Source: Escherichia phage Peacock. From it: a stretch of DNA of 39,233 nt. Shown piece after piece: positions 554 to 38,648 of the stretch (the first letter of the stretch is position 1; each line of letters begins with the position of its first letter). The notes beneath the pieces are model-generated. The model did no database searches. It was not told where the DNA came from and saw only the letters and a program-made list of their open reading frames with translations. The DNA lies in the sequence record MK903279.1; one strand, written 5' to 3'. The position numbers were made by a program, and so were the translations under genes.

Positions 554-583
554 TTGACAAGCAGTACAGACTTAAAGTAGTAT
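554..583 (+). promoter_or_regulatory. Candidate host (sigma70-type) early promoter, T7 A2/A3-like
   Basis: Consensus -35 TTGACA at 554-559, 18-nt spacer, -10 TAGTAT at 578-583, followed by GTACCACAT as in the T7 A3 promoter (recalled). Confidence 0.4.
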
Positions 584-1457: not shown

Positions 1458-1790
1458 ATGGAACGTAACGCTAACGCATACTATGAGCTGCTGGCTGCAA
1501 CCGTTGAAGCATTTAACGAGCGTATTCAGTACGACGAAATAGCTGAAGGCGATGATTATCACGATGCGCTGCATGAGGTCGTAGACGGTCAGGTTCCGCA
1601 CTATTACCACGAGATTTTCACGGTGATGGCTGCTGATGGTATAGACCACGAGTTCGAAGACTCTGGGCTAATGCCTGATACCAAGGATGTGACGCGTATA
1701 TTGCAAGCTCGCATCTATGAGGCGCTTTATAACGATGTGCTTAATAACTCGGATGTGGTCTGGTTTGAGGCTGAAGAGGACTGCGAGTGA
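1458..1790 (+). CDS. ocr: Ocr-like anti-restriction protein (DNA mimic, T7 gene 0.3 homolog)
   Basis: Translation ...[43 protein letters not shown]... matches T7 Ocr (...[43 protein letters not shown]...) as recalled; highly acidic; GAGAGGA RBS. Confidence 0.9.
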
Positions 1791-1947: not shown

Positions 1948-2073
1948 ATGTACCAGATAACGTATAGCAGTGAACAGGCGTTCTACGATGGGTGCTACGA
2001 GATGATGAGGCGCGGGGCTTGCTACGTGGCTAATCACCAGAGCCTGACCATAACGCTGACGGGTGGTTACTGA
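1948..2073 (+). CDS. Small hypothetical ORF (41 aa)
   Basis: ATG at 1948 three nt after the previous stop; 41 codons to TGA 2071-2073; weak RBS. Confidence 0.3.
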   Translation: MYQITYSSEQAFYDGCYEMMRRGACYVANHQSLTITLTGGY

Positions 2074-2143
2074 GTGATAGACGAGAGGTCATCGACTGAT
2101 AGGTGGCCTCAAAGATTGCCACTTACATTGATAGGAGTTAACT

Positions 2144-2233
2144 ATGAACATCGGTTACTGGGTATGCTTATCTCCGGTCATCTTTCTGATAGCTTGGGGA
2201 CTTCTGGACGCAATCAAGCGAGGGTCATTCTAA
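2144..2233 (+). CDS. Small hydrophobic peptide ORF (29 aa)
   Basis: AGGAG RBS 6 nt upstream of ATG 2144; translation MNIGYWVCLSPVIFLIAWGLLDAIKRGSF; stop TAA overlaps the next ATG (TAATG). Alternative reading is the GTG-initiated 2074..2430 track ORF. Confidence 0.25.
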   Translation: MNIGYWVCLSPVIFLIAWGLLDAIKRGSF

Positions 2234-2430
2234 TGAGCTGGGTACTTCTGGGTATCTTCGGCTATGGACTTATCGTCTACGTACTGGTGAGTGACATCAA
2301 CAAGGCGCGTAAAGTCTACAAATTCAACTATGTACGTCTGGGTCGCTGGACTGTACGTCAACCTAACGGGCGATTCATGCGCAACTTAGCAAACGTCTGG
2401 GATATAGCAACACTTGGGAGCAAACTGTAA
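2233..2430 (+). CDS. Small membrane protein (65 aa; may extend upstream to GTG 2074)
   Basis: GAGGG RBS 8 nt upstream of ATG 2233; N-terminal hydrophobic stretch MSWVLLGIFGYGLIVYVLV then basic tail; track ORF 2074..2430 is the same frame with a GTG start. Confidence 0.45.
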   Translation: MSWVLLGIFGYGLIVYVLVSDINKARKVYKFNYVRLGRWTVRQPNGRFMRNLANVWDIATLGSKL

Positions 2431-2756
2431 TGAACAAGTCATACGGGATTAATCTGGTACACTCTATGGACGCAGACATGCAAATGTTAAGCCTACTGGC
2501 TACCGGGTATCGTCACGGAACGTCAAGTCACTCCGCACGTCAACAGCAGGAGAGGGACCGGGTACTGCAAGCAAGACTCCGGGCTGAGGGCCATAAGTCC
2601 GAGCTGATGTGTCTGGCGTATGGTGGACGACCAATCACTGACGATGGTAAACTTTTAGTCTCAGGCTGGAAGGCGATAGACCAACGGTCAACCATCAAGC
2701 ACACGACTCATGGTGACTTCAGTCATCTTCACGCTAACCCACTGATATGCAAGTGA
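2430..2756 (+). CDS. Hypothetical early protein (108 aa)
   Basis: ATG overlaps the preceding stop (TAATG); no motif recognised; occupies the position where T7 carries gene 0.7. Confidence 0.55.
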   Translation: MNKSYGINLVHSMDADMQMLSLLATGYRHGTSSHSARQQQERDRVLQARLRAEGHKSELMCLAYGGRPITDDGKLLVSGWKAIDQRSTIKHTTHGDFSHLHANPLICK

Positions 2757-2761
2757 TTCTG

Positions 2762-2784
2762 ACTTAACTATCACTATAGGACTC
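2762..2784 (+). promoter_or_regulatory. Phage RNA polymerase promoter immediately upstream of gene 1
   Basis: ACTTAACTATCACTATAGGACTC fits the 11-copy family consensus (TAAACTATCACTATAGGGA), +1 G at 2779. Confidence 0.6.
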
Positions 2785-2853
2785 AAGGTCTAAGACTCCA
2801 AGTGAAAGACCAAAGAGACTTTAAGTGAAAGACTAATAACAAGGACTTTAAGT

Positions 2854-5535
2854 ATGAGCGTCATCTCTATTGACAAACACGACTTCTCTGATGTGTCGAA
2901 CGCCATTGAGCCGTTTAACCTGCTGGCTGACCACTACGGGCAAGACCTTGCAGTCAAACAGCTTCAGCTTGAGCATGAGGCATACACTGAAGGCGAGCGA
3001 CGTTTCATCAAAAACCTTGAGCGACAGACTGAGCGCGGGGAACTGGCAGACAATCAGGTCGCCAAGCCTTTGATGCAGACTCTGGTCCCTAAGATTGCGC
3101 AAGCCGTCAGGGAGTGGCATGAAGGTCAAGACGGGAAGCTGTCAACCTCTCGTCCTAGCGTAGCGTTCACCATGTTGAGCACTGAAGAGAAGGCCGTTAA
3201 AGACCGCTCTATGCGCATCTCCTGCGAGTCTGCTGCGGTTATCATACTGAAGGTCATCCTCAGCAAGCTGGTCAAGCCTGAAGGGATACCGATTACACCG
3301 ATGGCCTCAGCGATAGGTCGCACACTTGAGGATGAAATCCGCTTCGGTCGCATTCGTGACAAGGAGAAGGAGCACTTCAAGAAGGCGATAGCTGATAACC
3401 TGAATAAGCGGGCTGGGGCATCCTACAAAAAAGCCTACATGCAAGCGGTTGAGGCATCCATGCTGGAGCAAGGACAACTGGAAGATGCGTGGGGGACTTG
3501 GAGTCCGACCGAGGCTGTCCACGTTGGAATCAAGATGCTTGAGATTGTCATCCAGTCAACACAACTGGTCGAGCTTAAGCGCTACGGTGCTGGCAATGCA
3601 GCGGCTGATGTAGAGATGGTCCACCTGTCAGACTTCTGGGTCAAGAAGATGGCACAACGAGGCTTCAGCCTTGCGGGTATCGCTCCGGTCTATCAACCTT
3701 GCGTCGTTCCACCTAAGCCGTGGACTGGTGTCGTAGGCGGTGGGTACTGGGCCAAAGGTCGCAGACCACTACCATTGATTCGCTTAGGGTCTAAGTCTGC
3801 GGTGGCACGCTATGAAGACGTGTACATGCCTGAAGTCTATGACGCTGTGAATATCATCCAGAATACGCCTTGGAAAGTGAACAAGAAGGTGCTGGACGTG
3901 GTGAACATGGTCGAGAAGTTGAACAACACGCCTATTGATGACATCCCTCAGATGGAGCCACTGAAGCCTGAAGACTATGCGGGTGAGACTGAAGAGGAAC
4001 TCAAGGCATGGAAGAAGACTGCTGCTGGTATCTACCGCCGAGAGAAGGCCCGCCAGTCACGCAGATTGTCACTGAGCTTTATCGTTAACCAAGCGAACAA
4101 GTTCTCTCAGTTCAAGGCCATCTGGTTCCCGTATAACATGGACTGGCGCGGTCGCGTCTACGCTGTGCCGATGTTCAACCCTCAGGGTAACGACATGCAA
4201 AAGGGTCTCCTGACTCTGGCAGTCGGTAAGCCTATTGGTGCTGATGGTTTCAAATGGCTGAAGGTCCACGGTGCAAACTGTGCGGGTGTCGATAAAGTCA
4301 CCTTCGAGGAGCGCATCAAGTGGGTGGAAGATAACCACGACAACATCATGGCTACCGCTAAGGCACCGATGGACAGCATTGAGTGGTGGGGTAAGTTAGA
4401 CTCTCCGTTCTGCTTCCTAGCGTTCTGCTTCGAGTATGCTGGCGTAATGCACCACGGTTTGTCTTACTCCTGCTCGCTGCCGATAGCTTTCGATGGGTCC
4501 TGCTCTGGGATTCAGCACTTCAGCGCGATGCTTCGTGATCACATCGGTGGACATGCAGTAAACCTGACGCCTTCCGGTAAGGTCCAAGACATCTACCGCA
4601 TCGTGTCTGACCGCATTGAGGAGGAGCTTAAAGTCCTGCTGGTTAATGGCACGGACAACGAGGTGGTCACTCACGAGGATAAGAAAACTGGCGAGATTAC
4701 CGAACGTATCAAGCTGGGGACACGAGAGCTGGCCCGCCAGTGGCTGACCTACGGTATGTCACGCAAGGTCCCTAAGCGTTCAGTAATGACTCTGGCCTAC
4801 GGGTCGAAAGAGTATGGCTTCGCAGACCAAGTTTACGAGGACATCGTGATGCCAGCGATTGACTCAGGGTCTGGCGCTATGTTCACCGAGCCAAGCCAAG
4901 CGTCTCGCTTCATGGCTAAGATGATTTGGGAAGCTGTGAGTGGAACCGTAGTTGCTGCTGTTGACGTGATGAAGTGGCTTCAGGGTGCTGCCAAGCTGCT
5001 GGCTGCTGAAGTGAAGGACAAGAAGACTGGAGAAATCCTGAAGCCTTGCCTTCCGGTACACTGGGTCACACCTGATGGGTTCCCGGTCTGGCAGGAATAT
5101 CGCAAGAAGGATACCACTCGTCTGAACCTGATGTTCTTAGGGTCATTCAACCTTCAACCTACGGTCAACAAAGGCACGAAGAAAGAGCTGGACAGGCACA
5201 AGCAGGAGTCAGGCATTAGCCCGAACTTCGTCCACTCACAAGATGGAAGCCACCTACGCAAGACTGTAGTCCACACGCATCGCAAGTATGGCGTGATATC
5301 ATTCGCAGTGATTCACGATAGCTTCGGGACCATCCCGGCTGACGCTGAGTATCTGTTCCGTGGTGTCCGTGAGACGATGGTCGAGACCTACCGAGACAAC
5401 GATGTGCTGTTGGACTTCTACGAGCAGTTTGACTGCCAGCTTCACGAGAGCCAGCGCGACAAGTTGCCAGAGCTTCCGAAGAAAGGTAAACTGAATATCG
5501 AGGACATCTTGTCTTCAGACTATGCATTCGCTTAA
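2854..5535 (+). CDS. Single-subunit DNA-dependent RNA polymerase (T7 gene 1 homolog)
   Basis: 893 aa; N-terminus KHDFSDVSNAIEPFNLLADHYG and C-terminus ...HESQRDKLPELPKKGKLNIEDILSSDYAFA match T7 RNAP as recalled (...FAFA end); specificity-loop region PTVNKGTKKELDRHKQESG present. Confidence 0.97.
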   Translation: MSVISIDKHDFSDVSNAIEPFNLLADHYGQDLAVKQLQLEHEAYTEGERRFIKNLERQTERGELADNQVAKPLMQTLVPKIAQAVREWHEGQDGKLSTSRPSVAFTMLSTEEKAVKDRSMRISCESAAVIILKVILSKLVKPEGIPITPMASAIGRTLEDEIRFGRIRDKEKEHFKKAIADNLNKRAGASYKKAYMQAVEASMLEQGQLEDAWGTWSPTEAVHVGIKMLEIVIQSTQLVELKRYGAGNAAADVEMVHLSDFWVKKMAQRGFSLAGIAPVYQPCVVPPKPWTGVVGGGYWAKGRRPLPLIRLGSKSAVARYEDVYMPEVYDAVNIIQNTPWKVNKKVLDVVNMVEKLNNTPIDDIPQMEPLKPEDYAGETEEELKAWKKTAAGIYRREKARQSRRLSLSFIVNQANKFSQFKAIWFPYNMDWRGRVYAVPMFNPQGNDMQKGLLTLAVGKPIGADGFKWLKVHGANCAGVDKVTFEERIKWVEDNHDNIMATAKAPMDSIEWWGKLDSPFCFLAFCFEYAGVMHHGLSYSCSLPIAFDGSCSGIQHFSAMLRDHIGGHAVNLTPSGKVQDIYRIVSDRIEEELKVLLVNGTDNEVVTHEDKKTGEITERIKLGTRELARQWLTYGMSRKVPKRSVMTLAYGSKEYGFADQVYEDIVMPAIDSGSGAMFTEPSQASRFMAKMIWEAVSGTVVAAVDVMKWLQGAAKLLAAEVKDKKTGEILKPCLPVHWVTPDGFPVWQEYRKKDTTRLNLMFLGSFNLQPTVNKGTKKELDRHKQESGISPNFVHSQDGSHLRKTVVHTHRKYGVISFAVIHDSFGTIPADAEYLFRGVRETMVETYRDNDVLLDFYEQFDCQLHESQRDKLPELPKKGKLNIEDILSSDYAFA

Positions 5536-5842: not shown

Positions 5843-5959
5843 ATGTTCAACCGTAAACTGAAAGCACGTATCGCAGATCTCGAAGCAACCATCCAGCGTC
5901 AGGACCATAATCTTGAGCTGGCTAACCGGGAGCACGCACGGCTAAGGGCCAAGATTTAG
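5843..5959 (+). CDS. Small ORF (38 aa), in frame with downstream ORF across a TAG
   Basis: AGAGGT RBS; translation MFNRKLKARIADLEATIQRQDHNLELANREHARLRAKI, then TAG at 5957-5959. Confidence 0.3.
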   Translation: MFNRKLKARIADLEATIQRQDHNLELANREHARLRAKI

Positions 5960-6004
5960 AAGGCTGAAGAGAAGCGTGAAGTCGAGCCGTTCGAGGTTAA
6001 GCGG

Positions 6005-6304
6005 ATGGTCGGCCTGAAGTTCAAGGCTCTGTTCAATAGCCTCTACCAGCCGACTGAGTTCAAGACCGGGCCTGGAGCATGCGGTAAGATTGTGACGCAC
6101 TTCACCACGAGTCGAGACGAGCGGACCCTGACCATCCACCAGCACCACACGGATGGCTCTCAGAAGGACTTTGAGTACCGACTGAGCGACATCGACGGTC
6201 GCATCCAGTATGACTACGAGCAAGTTAAAGTCTATGGACAGGAGGCCGAACGTGAGCGAGCGATTCAGGCATTCACGCAGGTAAGACCGCGCATCATCTT
6301 CTAA
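6005..6304 (+). CDS. Hypothetical protein (99 aa); possibly the C-terminal part of an amber-interrupted gene
   Basis: Same frame as 5843..5959, separated by one TAG and 15 sense codons; own GAGGT RBS. Confidence 0.5.
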   Translation: MVGLKFKALFNSLYQPTEFKTGPGACGKIVTHFTTSRDERTLTIHQHHTDGSQKDFEYRLSDIDGRIQYDYEQVKVYGQEAERERAIQAFTQVRPRIIF

Positions 6305-6322
6305 ACTATCACTATAGGATTA
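6300..6322 (+). promoter_or_regulatory. Phage promoter (phi1.1-like)
   Basis: CTAAACTATCACTATAGGATTAG; +1 G at 6317. Confidence 0.7.
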
Positions 6323-6364
6323 GACTCAAGGTCATGACTCAAAGTCGTGGCCTTCATGATTAAC
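6318..6364 (+). promoter_or_regulatory. RNase III-type processing hairpin (R1.1-like)
   Basis: AGACTCAAGGTCAT...GTGGCCTTCATGATTA; same element recurs at 13114 and 36221 and resembles T7 R0.3 (ACTCAAGG...GCCCTTTATGATA) as recalled. Confidence 0.5.
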
Positions 6365-6588: not shown

Positions 6589-6852
6589 ATGGGCCGACTT
6601 TATAGTGGCAACCTCAACGCTTTCAAAGCAGCGTGTAACAGGCTTTATCAGTTAGACTTCGCTGTTATATCTCAGGAGTTTCAAGACCATACGTCACGCC
6701 AAGAGTGCATGAAACTCAGGGTGGAGGACCGAGCTGGTAACATCTTCGCGCTTGAGACCTTCGCACACTACGATGAAGACGTGCTGTATAATACTGCAAC
6801 AGACTACCTCAACGGTCTCGCTGACCAACTCGACACATGGAGCAAAGCATAA
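6589..6852 (+). CDS. Gene 1.2-like protein (inhibitor of host dGTPase in T7)
   Basis: MGRLYSGNLNAFKAACNRLYQLDFAVI... matches T7 gp1.2 (MGRLYSGNLAAFKAATNKLFQLDLAVI...) as recalled. Confidence 0.85.
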   Translation: MGRLYSGNLNAFKAACNRLYQLDFAVISQEFQDHTSRQECMKLRVEDRAGNIFALETFAHYDEDVLYNTATDYLNGLADQLDTWSKA

Positions 6853-7904
6853 TGACAACTATCAAAACTAACCCGCACCGCGCTGTAGATTACTCTGAGT
6901 CTGGCATTAAGAAGGCACTGGAAGCAGCCGGGTCTCTGGAAGCTGAAGTGAAGTACGATGGTGTCCGGTTGAACCTTCCGGTGCTGCGAGAAGGTGAGAC
7001 ATACTGGTTAAGCCGTGAGTCTAAACCGCTGCCAGCACTGGAGTGGATGAACTCTGAGTTAGGGAATGCGTGGACTCAAGCTGACTGGCGATGGTTCCTG
7101 CGTCAAGCTGGATACGAAGGCGTAGGCCTGATGATTGACGGAGAGGTAATGGTCAAAGGTGTTGACTTCAACACATCATCGGGTCTCATCCGAACGAAGT
7201 GGCTGAAGCCTAGCAACGAGGAGTTCGCTGAATGCTATCCGGGACGTGGCAAGAAGGTCCCGTTCTGGGTCGCCCGGTCACGACTCAAGGTTGTGGTCTA
7301 CGGCGTCGTAGATATGACAACCATTGCTGACCCGAAAGCCGAAGGTCCTATCCATAGCGTCACACGCCTGAAGGCCGAAGCTATCGTCCCTCTCCTCCAG
7401 AAATACTTCCCGGAAATCGACTGGGTTCTGTCTGAGTCACACACGGTCTATGACCTTGAGTCGCTCAACTCCCTATATGAAGAGAAGCGTCTGGAAGGAC
7501 ATGAGGGTCTGGTAGTCAAGGACCCACTGGGTAAGTGGAAGCGTGGAAAGAAGTCAGGAATGTGGAAAATGAAGCCTGAGGATACCATTGATGGTACTGT
7601 GTGTGGACTCGTGTGGGGGACTCCGGGTAAGGCCAACGAAGGCAAGGTCATTGGCTTTGAGGTGCTGCTGGAGGACGGAATGGTAGTGAATGCGTGCGGC
7701 CTGACTGAGGAGCAGAAGGATGAGTTCACCGCTTCCGTTCTAAACTGGCGTAAGGGGTTATGCTCAAGCACTATTTATGGAAACCCGTTTGCGGGTAATC
7801 AGGTGGAAGTCCTCTTCATGGAGCGGTTCCCTGATGGCTCCCTTCGTCACCCCAGCTTCAAGTGCTGGCGTGGAACCGAAGACAACCCAACGGTGAAGTC
7901 ATGA
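6852..7904 (+). CDS. ATP-dependent DNA ligase (T7 gene 1.3 homolog)
   Basis: Start set at ATG 6852 overlapping the 1.2 stop (TAATG); MTTIKTNPHRAV... and adenylation motif EVKYDGVR match T7 ligase; track ORF begins 15 nt upstream. Confidence 0.92.
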   Translation: MTTIKTNPHRAVDYSESGIKKALEAAGSLEAEVKYDGVRLNLPVLREGETYWLSRESKPLPALEWMNSELGNAWTQADWRWFLRQAGYEGVGLMIDGEVMVKGVDFNTSSGLIRTKWLKPSNEEFAECYPGRGKKVPFWVARSRLKVVVYGVVDMTTIADPKAEGPIHSVTRLKAEAIVPLLQKYFPEIDWVLSESHTVYDLESLNSLYEEKRLEGHEGLVVKDPLGKWKRGKKSGMWKMKPEDTIDGTVCGLVWGTPGKANEGKVIGFEVLLEDGMVVNACGLTEEQKDEFTASVLNWRKGLCSSTIYGNPFAGNQVEVLFMERFPDGSLRHPSFKCWRGTEDNPTVKS

Positions 7905-9074: not shown

Positions 9075-9773
9075 ATGGCTAAAGAGCAACTGAAGACTTT
9101 CACCACTCCGGTAGCTGGTATCGTTGAGCCTTACGCATGGCTGAACAAAGCAGACACCAAGTTTAATGAGCGTGGTGAGCATAAGGTTAACCTGACATTC
9201 GACCTGAGCAACCCGAAGGTCCGTAAGATGATTGATGTCTTACAGAAGATTCACGACGATGCGTATGCGAAAGCACTCGCAGACCACGAGAAGAACCCAC
9301 CTCAGGTTCAGCGTGGCAAGAAGCCTATTGAACCACGAGAGGGCGACATGCCGTGGATTGAGAATGGTGACGGTACTGTTACCCTGAAGTTTAAATGCTT
9401 CGCGTCTTACCTGAAGGATGGTAAGTCAGAGCCTATCGTATTACGGTTCTACGACACCGATGCTAAGTTAATCCGTGACGTCCCGAATATTGGCGCTGGC
9501 TCAAAACTGAAGGTCAAGTTTAAAGTCCTGCCGTTCAAGTGGAACGCTGCGACTGGTGCAAGCGTTAAGCTACAGCTTGAGTCCTGCCTTCTGGTAGAAC
9601 TGAAGGAGTGGAAAGGTGATGGTACTGGTGGCGATGGCGGCTGGGGTGATGATGAAGACCTCGGTACTGGCTACAAAGCATCAACCGATGGTGACTTCGG
9701 GTCTGATGACTTCGGTGACGATGGTTACGAAGGTGGTGACGCCTCCAACTCTGGTGGCGATTACGACTTCTAA
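9075..9773 (+). CDS. Single-stranded DNA-binding protein (T7 gene 2.5 homolog)
   Basis: MAKEQ... start, ...GASVKLQLESCLLVEL... and acidic C-terminal tail ending ...GGDYDF match T7 gp2.5 as recalled. Confidence 0.92.
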   Translation: MAKEQLKTFTTPVAGIVEPYAWLNKADTKFNERGEHKVNLTFDLSNPKVRKMIDVLQKIHDDAYAKALADHEKNPPQVQRGKKPIEPREGDMPWIENGDGTVTLKFKCFASYLKDGKSEPIVLRFYDTDAKLIRDVPNIGAGSKLKVKFKVLPFKWNAATGASVKLQLESCLLVELKEWKGDGTGGDGGWGDDEDLGTGYKASTDGDFGSDDFGDDGYEGGDASNSGGDYDF

Positions 9774-10225
9774 TGGCCCAATGGTCTGCAAAACGGGGGC
9801 ACTCTGTGGGTGCCTACCGCTCTGGACTTGAAGCCAAGAACCAGCAGTGGCTGGAACAGAACGGCGTCAAAGCGGAGTACGAAAGCCATTATATCAACTA
9901 TGTGATTCCGGCTTCCGACCACAAGTACACACCAGATTTTATCCTTCCCAACGGTATCATCGTGGAGACCAAAGGTATCTTCGATAGTGATGACCGTAAG
10001 AAGCACCTTCTGGTACGAGAACAGCACCCAGAGTTAGACATCCGGTTCGTGTTCTCAAGTGCCCGCTCCAAGTTATACAAAGGGTCTCCGACCACGTATG
10101 GCGCATGGTGCGAAAAGAACGGCTATAAGTATGCCGATAAGTTCATCCCGGTTGAGTGGCTGCGAGAGGCGACTGTACGTCTGCCTTCAGGTATACTCAT
10201 CCCCAAGAAGAAAGGAGTTAAGTGA
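9773..10225 (+). CDS. Endonuclease I, Holliday-junction resolvase (T7 gene 3 homolog)
   Basis: ...YRSGLEAKNQQWLEQNGVKAEYE...VIPASDHKYTPDFILPNGIIVETKGIFDSDDRKKHLLVREQHPELDIRFVFSS... matches T7 gp3; ATG overlaps the SSB stop. Confidence 0.92.
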   Translation: MAQWSAKRGHSVGAYRSGLEAKNQQWLEQNGVKAEYESHYINYVIPASDHKYTPDFILPNGIIVETKGIFDSDDRKKHLLVREQHPELDIRFVFSSARSKLYKGSPTTYGAWCEKNGYKYADKFIPVEWLREATVRLPSGILIPKKKGVK

Positions 10226-10449
10226 TGACTCAGGAAGTTAAGGTCGTTCGTCAGCGTCTGACCATTGATAAAATCCCGGTAGGCTATGCGTTTATCGTCC
10301 ACGGTAAGCCGGGTGAAGTGTACGTGAAGATTAGTAACTCTCACGTCTTCAACCATAAGTTACTCCAGATGCACACCACGGATGCTAACCGCTTCCAACG
10401 TCATCTGAACCTCGTAGCTGTAGAGCTGGTGGTGTATGATGGTGAGTAA
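10225..10449 (+). CDS. Hypothetical protein (74 aa) inserted between endonuclease I and lysozyme
   Basis: AAGGAG RBS; ATG 10225 overlaps the gene 3 stop; 3' end overlaps the lysozyme start; no motif recognised. Confidence 0.55.
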   Translation: MTQEVKVVRQRLTIDKIPVGYAFIVHGKPGEVYVKISNSHVFNHKLLQMHTTDANRFQRHLNLVAVELVVYDGE

Positions 10450-10897
10450 GGTGCAATTCAACCCACGGTCACGGACTGACGCTATCTTCGTTCACTGTTC
10501 GGCTACCAAGCCAGAGATGGACATCGGGGTAGAGACCATCCGTATGTGGCACAAGCAGCAAGGATGGCTGGACGTAGGCTACCACTTTATCATCAAGCGC
10601 GATGGTACTGTGGAAGAGGGTCGCCCGGTCAATGTCGTAGGGTCACACGTTAAGGACTGGAACTCCAAGTCCGTAGGCGTCTGCCTTGTAGGTGGAATCA
10701 ACGCTAAGGGTCAGTTTGAAGCTAACTTCACTCCAGCCCAGATGAACTCCCTGCGCAACAAGCTGGCTGACCTGAAGGCCCTGTATCCTCAGGCAGAAAT
10801 CAAAGCACACCATGACGTAGCACCAAAGGCGTGTCCAAGTTTCGACTTACAACGCTGGCTGTCTACCAATGAGCTGGTCACTTCCGACCACGGTTAA
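10436..10897 (+). CDS. N-acetylmuramoyl-L-alanine amidase / T7-type lysozyme (gene 3.5 homolog)
   Basis: ...RTDAIFVHCSATKP...WLDVGYHFIIKRDGTVEEGR...VGVCLVGGI...AHHDVAPKACPSFDL... matches T7 lysozyme including its zinc-ligand positions. Confidence 0.93.
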   Translation: MMVSKVQFNPRSRTDAIFVHCSATKPEMDIGVETIRMWHKQQGWLDVGYHFIIKRDGTVEEGRPVNVVGSHVKDWNSKSVGVCLVGGINAKGQFEANFTPAQMNSLRNKLADLKALYPQAEIKAHHDVAPKACPSFDLQRWLSTNELVTSDHG

Positions 10898-10921: not shown

Positions 10922-11137
10922 ATGATTAAACTTATCGAATTTCTCGGTCGTCTGGTGGTGCGTGGTTATCGTCGTGCTGCGGTTATGGAACGAAAGGTAG
11001 CAGAGAAGACTGCTGACGGTGCGGCTGATGCTGCTGCTCTGGCTGACAAGCTGACCATCGCGTCACTGGAAGCTGGCATGAAGGCACGTCAGGCTGACAC
11101 CAAAGCTGACCAGTTGTCTAAGTTCTTCAAAGCCTAA
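10922..11137 (+). CDS. Hypothetical Ala/Lys-rich protein (71 aa)
   Basis: AAGGAGAA RBS; no motif recognised. Confidence 0.5.
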   Translation: MIKLIEFLGRLVVRGYRRAAVMERKVAEKTADGAADAAALADKLTIASLEAGMKARQADTKADQLSKFFKA

Positions 11138-11155
11138 ACTATCACCTTAGGGATG
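11133..11155 (+). promoter_or_regulatory. Phage promoter, divergent copy (phi3.8-like)
   Basis: CCTAAACTATCACCTTAGGGATG; CT in place of TA at -4/-3. Confidence 0.5.
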
Positions 11156-11202: not shown

Positions 11203-12948
<1,746 letters not shown>

Positions 12949-13113: not shown

Positions 13114-13160
13114 GTCTAGACTCAAGGTCATTCACATCGAGTGGCCTTTATGATTAGACT
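13114..13160 (+). promoter_or_regulatory. RNase III-type processing hairpin (R4.7-like)
   Basis: GGTCTAGACTCAAGGTCATTCACATCGAGTGGCCTTTATGATTAGAC; AAGGTCAT can pair with GTGGCCTT (G-U pairs allowed). Confidence 0.5.
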
Positions 13161-20885: not shown

Positions 20886-20908
20886 ACTAAACTATCACTA
20901 TAGGGAGA
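20886..20908 (+). promoter_or_regulatory. Phage promoter (phi10-like), best consensus match
   Basis: ACTAAACTATCACTATAGGGAGACC; initiating GGGAGA as in T7 class III promoters. Confidence 0.75.
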
Positions 20909-36220: not shown

Positions 36221-36270
36221 GTGTTAGACTCAAGGTCATTACTATATGTAGTGGCCTTTATGGTTAACAC
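36221..36270 (+). promoter_or_regulatory. RNase III-type processing hairpin (R18.5-like)
   Basis: GTGTTAGACTCAAGGTCATTACTATATGTAGTGGCCTTTATGGTTAACAC; third copy of the 6318/13114 element. Confidence 0.5.
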
Positions 36271-38625: not shown

Positions 38626-38648
38626 ACTTAACTATCACTATAGGGAAG
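38626..38648 (+). promoter_or_regulatory. Phage promoter (phiOR-like)
   Basis: GACTTAACTATCACTATAGGGAAGACC; +1 G at 38643. Confidence 0.7.

Follow-up and report, generated by a model that had tools for sequence, protein, structure and literature searches.

A predicted phage promoter directly upstream of the gene for RNA polymerase in phages of the genus Kayfunavirus

The stretch of DNA analysed here (the window; 39,233 nt) is the complete genome of a K1F-like phage belonging to the genus Kayfunavirus, subfamily Studiervirinae, in the T7 group. The features surrounding gene 1, which encodes the single-subunit RNA polymerase, are collected in Table 1. Positions 2000-3600 are matched by 220 phage records at 80-99% identity, mostly from Escherichia, Salmonella, Enterobacter and Citrobacter phages of Kayfunavirus, and the identity between the window's polymerase and the K1F enzyme covers the region of the specificity loop too. 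Between the early ORF upstream and gene 1 there is a gap of 97 nt, filled by the phage promoter at 2762; the stop codon of the ORF lies 6 nt 5' of that promoter.

Several landmarks of the early region bear on how gene 1 might be transcribed. The best sigma-70-like candidate for a host promoter occupies a place similar to that at which host RNAP promoters are annotated in the EcoDS1 record, and no terminator-like site was found on the + strand between 554 and 2854. Positions 1-2853 contain no gene of the size of the 0.7 kinase; a 0.7-like kinase gene is present in Dev2, LET1 and P7124, members of the same genus. Downstream of gene 1, the promoter at 6300 is directly followed by the RNase III hairpin at 6323, with no second promoter after the pair, and it is probably at this hairpin that the gene 1 transcript is processed at its 3' end.

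Table 1. Features of the window discussed in the text, in order of position.
Feature	Coordinates	Strand	Remarks
Best sigma-70-like host promoter candidate	554-583	+	TTGACA, 18 nt, TAGTAT
ocr	1458-1790		T7-like neighbour
Early ORF upstream of gene 1	2430-2756	+	counterpart of gp0.38 in related records
Predicted phage RNA polymerase promoter, -17 to +6	2762-2784	+	ACTTAACTATCACTATAGGACTC; predicted start G2779
5' leader of gene 1, 75 nt	2779-2853	+	32/75 A, 64% A+T
GACTCAAGGTC at +2 to +12	2780-2790	+	kept in both leader types
Imperfect direct repeat, 21 nt	2793-2813 and 2816-2836	+	23-nt period, 86% identical
Ribosome-binding region	2841-2853	+	Shine-Dalgarno AAGGA (2841-2845) plus spacer
Gene 1, single-subunit RNA polymerase	2854-5535	+	893 aa; 98% identity to K1F enzyme, 64% to that of T7
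T3 gene 1.05-like ORF	6005-6304		T7-like neighbour
Next phage promoter, then T7 R1.1-like RNase III hairpin	6300-6362 (promoter 6300-6322)	+	counterpart of T7 phi1.1A + R1.1
T7-style RNase III hairpins (three)	6323-6362, 13119-13160, 36227-36265		GACTCAAGGTCAT...GTGGCCTTyATGrTTA; close to T7 R1.1
dGTPase inhibitor (1.2)	6589-6852		T7-like neighbour
Ligase	6837-7904		T7-like neighbour
Endonuclease I	9773-10225		T7-like neighbour
Amidase_2 protein (lysozyme homologue)	10436-10897	+	T7 gene 3.5 position; PF01510, E = 2.3e-16
phiOR-like promoter	38626-38648	+	sole other site with the identical 19-mer ACTTAACTATCACTATAGG

The initial annotation had described a good copy of the phage promoter some 75 nt ahead of gene 1, with transcription starting at 2779, and this description was borne out: the 19-mer ACTTAACTATCACTATAGG occupies 2762-2780 on the + strand, the first G after TATA is 2779, and a 75-nt leader separates it from the ATG at 2854. 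Allowing up to three mismatches, ACTTAACTATCACTATAGG occurs at 10 sites in the genome, all on the + strand, a figure that may be compared to an expectation of 0.01 by chance. The genome was scanned with a weight matrix built from these ten sites. The ten promoters yield scores of 32.8-37.4 bits, among which the site at 2762, with 34.4 bits, ranks seventh. It matches the genome's own consensus at 18 of 19 positions between -17 and +2, and at 19 of 23 overall, and its bases at -12 to -7 (ACTATC) are identical in nine of the ten promoters. According to PMC3458549, a promoter with the predicted K1F-subfamily consensus at these same positions, -12 to -7, is activated in vivo by a T7 polymerase equipped with the K1F specificity loop. 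We estimate at roughly 80% the probability of the overall explanation given here, in which the site at 2762 is a real promoter, class II-like in sequence, that serves the T7-type RNA polymerase of the phage itself. The initially transcribed sequence at 2779, GGACTC, is class II-like, unlike the GGGAGA at 20886; since it has just two G and departs from GGGAGA, the predicted promoter may be a weak one.

The best score after the ten, 24.9 bits, belongs to CCTAAACTATCACCTTAGGGATG at 11133-11155, a candidate eleventh and weaker phage promoter situated ~70 nt upstream of a 566-aa ORF starting at 11206. The same scan revealed no phiOL-type promoter near the left end, the best score in 1-2700 being 5.4 bits.

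A promoter before gene 1 is present in every one of the 24 distinct Kayfunavirus sequences compared, in 20 of 20 IMG/VR relatives found through the polymerase N-terminus and, in a second, wider scan, in 17 of 17 Kayfunavirus loci. The most distant members of the genus that were found, LET1, Dev2 and P7124, each possess it. Its distance from the ATG is -75, -76 or -81 in all Kayfunavirus loci, and the 40 nt comprising the promoter and the start of the leader are found in 213 phage-database records, 155 of them at an identity of at least 99%.

Conservation was assessed quantitatively as the proportion of invariant columns among the 24 distinct Kayfunavirus sequences. The promoter (-17 to +2) is invariant at 89% of positions (17/19) and the block from the Shine-Dalgarno sequence to the ATG (2840-2856) at 94% (16/17). 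For comparison, the value is 74% for the first 39 codons of gene 1, 70% for +3 to +12, 41% for the last 123 nt of the upstream ORF and 40% for the middle of the leader, the least conserved segment. No other parts of the region are as well conserved as the promoter and the ribosome-binding site, and the promoter exceeds the neighbouring coding DNA in this respect. That the site at 2762 might be a chance or decayed copy of a promoter, devoid of function, is scarcely credible given its 18/19 match to the consensus, a sequence invariant or nearly so in the 213 records and across two diverged types of leader, and a conservation above that of the adjoining coding DNA. The conservation shows the predicted promoter to be under selection. 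It does not pin the selected role to autoregulation of the polymerase, because replication priming, expression of the ORFs beyond gene 1 or DNA entry would conserve a promoter equally.

The first type of leader, found in K1F and the window, measures 75 nt and goes with the promoter form CACTATAGG; the second, found in Dev2, LET1 and P7124, measures 81 nt, goes with CACTAAAGG, and has a middle that differs by many substitutions and indels. The base at -2 accordingly varies within the genus, TATAGG accompanying the 75-nt leader and TAAAGG the 81-nt leader, while the next promoter of the type 2 phages, the phi1.1A counterpart, retains TATAGG. The A at -2 of the CACTAAAGG form is also found in T7-type promoter sets and in T7 phi1.5 and phi1.6, and is for this reason compatible with function.

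Inspection of individual records gives the same picture. K1F (DQ111067, about 2474-2496) has the same promoter, followed by a leader that differs at one of 75 positions. In the EcoDS1 RefSeq entry (NC_011042) a 23-nt 'phi' promoter is annotated at 2244-2266, with gene 1 at 2336, in the same relative place, and the CR44b entry (NC_023576) has a 23-nt 'predicted promoter' at 1814-1836, again in the same place relative to gene 1. With the EcoDS1 and CR44b annotations both assigning it to the phage, the promoter is already known. The arrangement had initially been singled out as noteworthy, on the understanding that it would cease to be so if close relatives proved to have an equivalent promoter as standard. 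They do, as K1F, the 24 of 24 Kayfunavirus sequences and the 213 records attest, and by that measure it is unremarkable: the predicted promoter before gene 1 is a fixed trait of the genus Kayfunavirus.

One record differs in its label. In PE3-1 (KJ748011.1, 2874-2896; locus L004) the phage-type promoter before gene 1 is called a 'host RNAP promoter', which is likely to be an annotation error. A host sigma-70 promoter at the site, suggested by this label and by promoter C of T7, was considered for the window and rejected, no sigma-70-like site being found near 2700-2850 on the + strand.

Beyond the genus, the 600 nt upstream of gene 1 are free of phage promoters in all 63 loci compared from other Studiervirinae. 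Among these are loci of the T7, T3, Kvp1/Berlin, Pectobacterium/Dickeya, EamP-L1 and K11 types, and their polymerases are 58-64% identical to that of the window. Their nearest upstream phage promoter is phiOL-like and is positioned ahead of the early genes, 1.7-3.4 kb from gene 1 in all but locus L064, and their first downstream promoter directly follows gene 1, at +2650 to +2673. L064, a T3-like contig whose early region is very short, is only an apparent exception: the promoter at -627 is phiOL, and a host promoter comes after it. The predicted promoter before gene 1 thus separates Kayfunavirus from its sister genera. Nor can it be equated with phiOL. The site at 2762 is 2.76 kb from the left end and downstream of the early genes, whereas phiOL in the other Studiervirinae loci, L064 included, lies 0.6-3.4 kb upstream of gene 1 and ahead of those genes; the similarity of the window's leader to that of T7 phiOL is not significant (score 4.0).

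The initial annotation had described T7 gene 1 as lacking a phage promoter directly before it, and the annotated T7 record agrees. There, phiOL at 405 is the sole phage promoter upstream of gene 1, about 2.8 kb away; the E. coli promoters A1-A3, B and C lie between phiOL and gene 1 (3171), and phi1.1A is at 5848. The T7 sequence directly 5' of gene 1 has no similarity to the window's leader.

Two observations concern the early regions of other phages. In K11-type Klebsiella phages (loci L067-L103), whose own promoters are AATTAGGnnnCACTATAGGGAGA, there is a conserved word, AGAyAACTATCACTATAGGTCTA, that agrees with the core of K1F-type promoters, AACTATCACTATAGG; it is located ~57 nt downstream of phiOL and roughly 2.3-2.9 kb upstream of gene 1. 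In the early region of locus L063, a contig of the T7 group, a 21-nt unit, GGAACCACTGAGTATCATTRA, is repeated eleven times in tandem, some 1330-1540 nt upstream of gene 1.

The leader itself contains the most A-rich 60 nt of the genome, and its A+T content is 64-67%; A/T-rich stretches also lie downstream of other promoters in the window. The AAGGA of the ribosome-binding region is placed 8 nt before the ATG, and the 15-mer AGGACTTTAAGTATG (2842-2856) recurs unchanged around the start of T7 gene 1.1. A 14-nt match between the leader and T7-type loci was discarded as a coincidence, falling as it does inside a coding region there.

The leader had also been said to contain two pairs of direct repeats. 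Both words are indeed present, with two of the four coordinates requiring a shift of 2 nt: AAGTGAAAGAC occurs at 2800-2810 (not 2798-2808) and 2823-2833, and GACTTTAAGT at 2817-2826 (not 2815-2824) and 2844-2853. The imperfect 21-nt repeat includes both AAGTGAAAGAC copies and the GACTTTAAGT copy at 2817-2826, and shorter copies of the form GACTyyAAGK are seen at 2780 and 2844. An exact 11-nt repeat in a 75-nt leader has a P of about 0.001 (2000 dinucleotide-preserving shuffles); in the type 2 leader of Dev2, LET1 and P7124 the exact repeat is not significant (P = 0.09). The emphasis originally placed on a repeat-containing leader is not sustained, the exact repeat being limited to one leader type and there being no significant RNA structure.

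The latter point was assessed by folding. The leader RNA folds no better than its shuffles (z = +0.56, or -0.51 when the 60 nt upstream of it are included), a search for inverted repeats in it was negative, and there is no Rfam match anywhere in the window. A single consensus pairing is shared across relatives, that of 2781-2790 with 2844-2853, but it is weak (-4.4 kcal/mol) and without covariation. By the same measure the three T7-style RNase III hairpins give z values of -2.3, -2.4 and -5.2. These hairpins are of interest here since GACTCAAGGTC, of which the genome has ten copies on both strands against 0.16 expected, forms their 5' arm (at 6323, 13119 and 36227) and is the very word found at 2780-2790. 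T7 too carries an RNase III site immediately ahead of its gene 1, a class of site that the annotated T7 record does not list, and one might suppose the region to be a processing site, the counterpart of T7 R1, in which the promoter-like sequence is incidental. This is very improbable. The 3' arm (GTGGCCTTyATGA) that would match the word at 2780 is missing from the leader, which is why we do not consider the leader an RNase III site, and against such a site stand also the fold scores just given, the lack of an inverted repeat or Rfam match, and the weakness of the only pairing. When a hairpin with the upper stem AAGGUCAU...GUGGCCUU and an internal loop was looked for, the 5' word was the only element present.

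A further possibility is suggested by the composition of the repeats. GACT occurs five times in the 75 nt of the leader, where 0.53 copies are expected, and again five times in the type 2 leader (81 nt); no 75-nt segments of the genome other than those of the gene 1 leader hold at least five copies. The copies of the leader repeat are perfect or one-off instances of GAC-N5-GTC, a palindrome enriched about five-fold genome-wide whose sites are kept between relatives above control positions. The four GACTyyAAGK copies could conceivably be putative binding sites for a phage or host protein that would throttle transcription or translation of gene 1, a negative control of the autogene. We regard this as quite improbable: the final C is missing from three of the four copies, conservation does not extend to the exact repeat and is lowest in the middle of the leader, no candidate for the binding protein emerged, and about a dozen other regions are equally dense in relaxed GAC-N5-GTC matches, so that the leader was rejected as a uniquely dense cluster of them.

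The palindrome merits description in its own right. GAC-N5-GTC has 79 sites in the window, a number that may be compared to an expectation of about 14.5 (simulation maximum 24), and no other 3-Nk-3 palindrome of the genome is as strongly enriched, its z being about 15. Examples are found at 86, 99, 154, 190, 2780, 6323, 13119, 36227, 39018 and 39157. Their occurrence does not depend on reading frame and shows a three-fold concentration in non-coding DNA. Of the 79, 22 lie beyond or on the borders of the inferred genes, whose coverage leaves out about 10% of the genome; 11 are within the first 2 kb. Of the groups sampled, Kayfunavirus alone shows the excess: 39 kb hold about 97 sites there, compared to about 13 in loci of the T7 and Kvp1 types and 20 in those of the K11 type. 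Relatives keep these sites at a higher rate than they keep control positions; in one instance 19 of 29 are kept, for an expectation of 0.375. No paper was found on GACNNNNNGTC together with phage. The related GAC-N3-GTC shows the reverse, with no sites in the window against about 17 expected, and is nearly absent from all Studiervirinae groups sampled (loci L026-L105), at 0-1 per 39 kb, or 4.8 in the K11 type. Also absent or nearly so from the window are the 6-bp palindromes CTGCAG, GTCGAC, ACCGGT, TGGCCA and GGTACC.

A resemblance of a different kind links the leader to T7 5925-6006, the leader that runs from phi1.1B to gene 1.1, which forms the AT-rich portion of T7's primary origin of replication. 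Their alignment scores 23.5, whereas 1000 dinucleotide shuffles have a mean of 3.4, a standard deviation of 3.7 and a maximum of 18.5 (z = 5.4). Five other T7 promoter-downstream regions score -8.5 to 4, and the leaders of nine other promoters in the window -4.5 to 5.5, near background. The promoter and its A/T-rich leader might, then, be mainly or also a replication origin, counterpart of the T7 primary origin (phi1.1A, phi1.1B and AT-rich region), the transcript of which would prime DNA synthesis, with transcription of gene 1 as a side effect or second use. Consistent with this, the 6300 region has the phi1.1A and R1.1 counterparts and no second promoter, and the leader, with its extreme in A content, follows the leftmost phage promoter of a genome without phiOL. 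Nevertheless we think such a function unlikely. The alignment signal stems mostly from the shared 15-mer at the ribosome-binding site, and once the last 14 nt are left out z falls to 3.3 for the type 1 leader and to 1.7 (P = 0.06) for type 2. The leader has 64% A+T against 73% in the T7 segment, stretches similarly rich in A+T follow other promoters of the window, and the segment is fully explained as a 5' UTR with a ribosome-binding site. Bolder still, and a long shot, is the idea that in Kayfunavirus the T7 module of phi1.1B and AT-rich leader, a primary origin situated after gene 1, was moved to a place before gene 1, where it would start replication, drive autoregulation and replace phiOL, with the GAC-N5-GTC-like repeats binding a putative factor that would also mark the rest of the genome.

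Positive autoregulation of the phage polymerase remains the most likely function of the predicted promoter at 2762. It is mechanically plausible because no terminator-like site occurs between the promoter and gene 1, and the layout is that of an autogene: a cognate promoter 5' of gene 1 and a 75-nt leader, with no terminator-like site and no stable hairpin. Host RNA polymerase, starting from left-end sigma-70 promoters of which that at 554-583 is the best candidate, would read through the early genes into gene 1. The first molecules of phage polymerase would then bind 2762-2784 and start at G2779, giving an mRNA with an unstructured, A-rich leader and the AAGGA site ahead of the ATG, from which further polymerase would be made independently of the host enzyme, a positive feedback. 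The transcript would extend across the small ORFs that follow gene 1, reach the RNase III hairpin near 6330 and go on from there. The class II pause signal ATCTGTT occurs once in the gene 1 transcript, at 5351, and three times in the genome, about the number estimated for chance.

Two brakes on this loop may be envisaged by analogy with T7. The T7 gene 3.5 lysozyme inhibits the phage polymerase, and the lysozyme homologue encoded in the window could do likewise; stronger late promoters of the GGGAGA type would, in addition, compete for the enzyme. With no phage promoter to its left and phiOL absent, the promoter at 2762 could also be the earliest place for the fast phage polymerase to take over transcription, and perhaps DNA entry. 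Our literature searches found neither transcript mapping or in vitro transcription for Kayfunavirus nor an explicit statement on the promoter before gene 1 of these phages.

If autoregulation is indeed what the promoter serves, the textbook T7 rule, by which gene 1 is expressed only from transcripts of the host polymerase, does not hold across the T7 group. Kayfunavirus would be a genus with a natural autogene, and one that includes phages used in therapy studies as well as the source of the K1F promoter of synthetic biology. It would offer a convenient natural system for learning how a self-amplifying polymerase loop is held in check during a lytic cycle, and might reveal whether the genome enters faster when the phage polymerase takes over earlier from that of the host. 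In practical terms the value is modest, and the concept is not new, the same reading having been published for the phages LUZ100 and phiA318.

Among known systems, T7 resembles the window genome in overall gene order, in the promoter architecture around the CACTATAGG core, and in the succession of a promoter and then a leader or RNase III hairpin; the window genome differs in being without phiOL and without a gene of the size of the 0.7 kinase. A polymerase gene driven by its own cognate promoter is likewise the essence of the synthetic T7 autogene, T7 gene 1 under a T7 promoter, which Dubendorff and Studier are said to have built in 1991 and which, on a plasmid, reportedly needed control by repressor and lysozyme for its maintenance. 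That autogene is an engineered plasmid construct, whereas the arrangement in Kayfunavirus is natural and belongs to a lytic genome, for which runaway expression poses no maintenance problem.

Natural arrangements of a similar kind have been proposed elsewhere. In Vibrio phage phiA318 the predicted promoter phi-A8 lies upstream of the kinase and RNA polymerase genes, and autoregulation was proposed (PMC4099482); it differs from the present case in preceding kinase and polymerase together and in belonging to another promoter family, and it too is a prediction only (PMC4099482). In LUZ100, a phi1 promoter directly upstream of the gene for RNA polymerase had its start mapped by ONT-cappable-seq and positive feedback was proposed (Putzeys et al. 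2023, PMC10134795). LUZ100 is a distant, temperate-like Pseudomonas phage in which a MarR-like repressor is proposed to gate the promoter (PMC10134795), while the window genome has no lysogeny module and its promoter is predicted from sequence. What LUZ100 and the window have in common is a phage-specific promoter directly before the polymerase gene, from which feedback is proposed to follow the first, host-driven transcript (PMC10134795).
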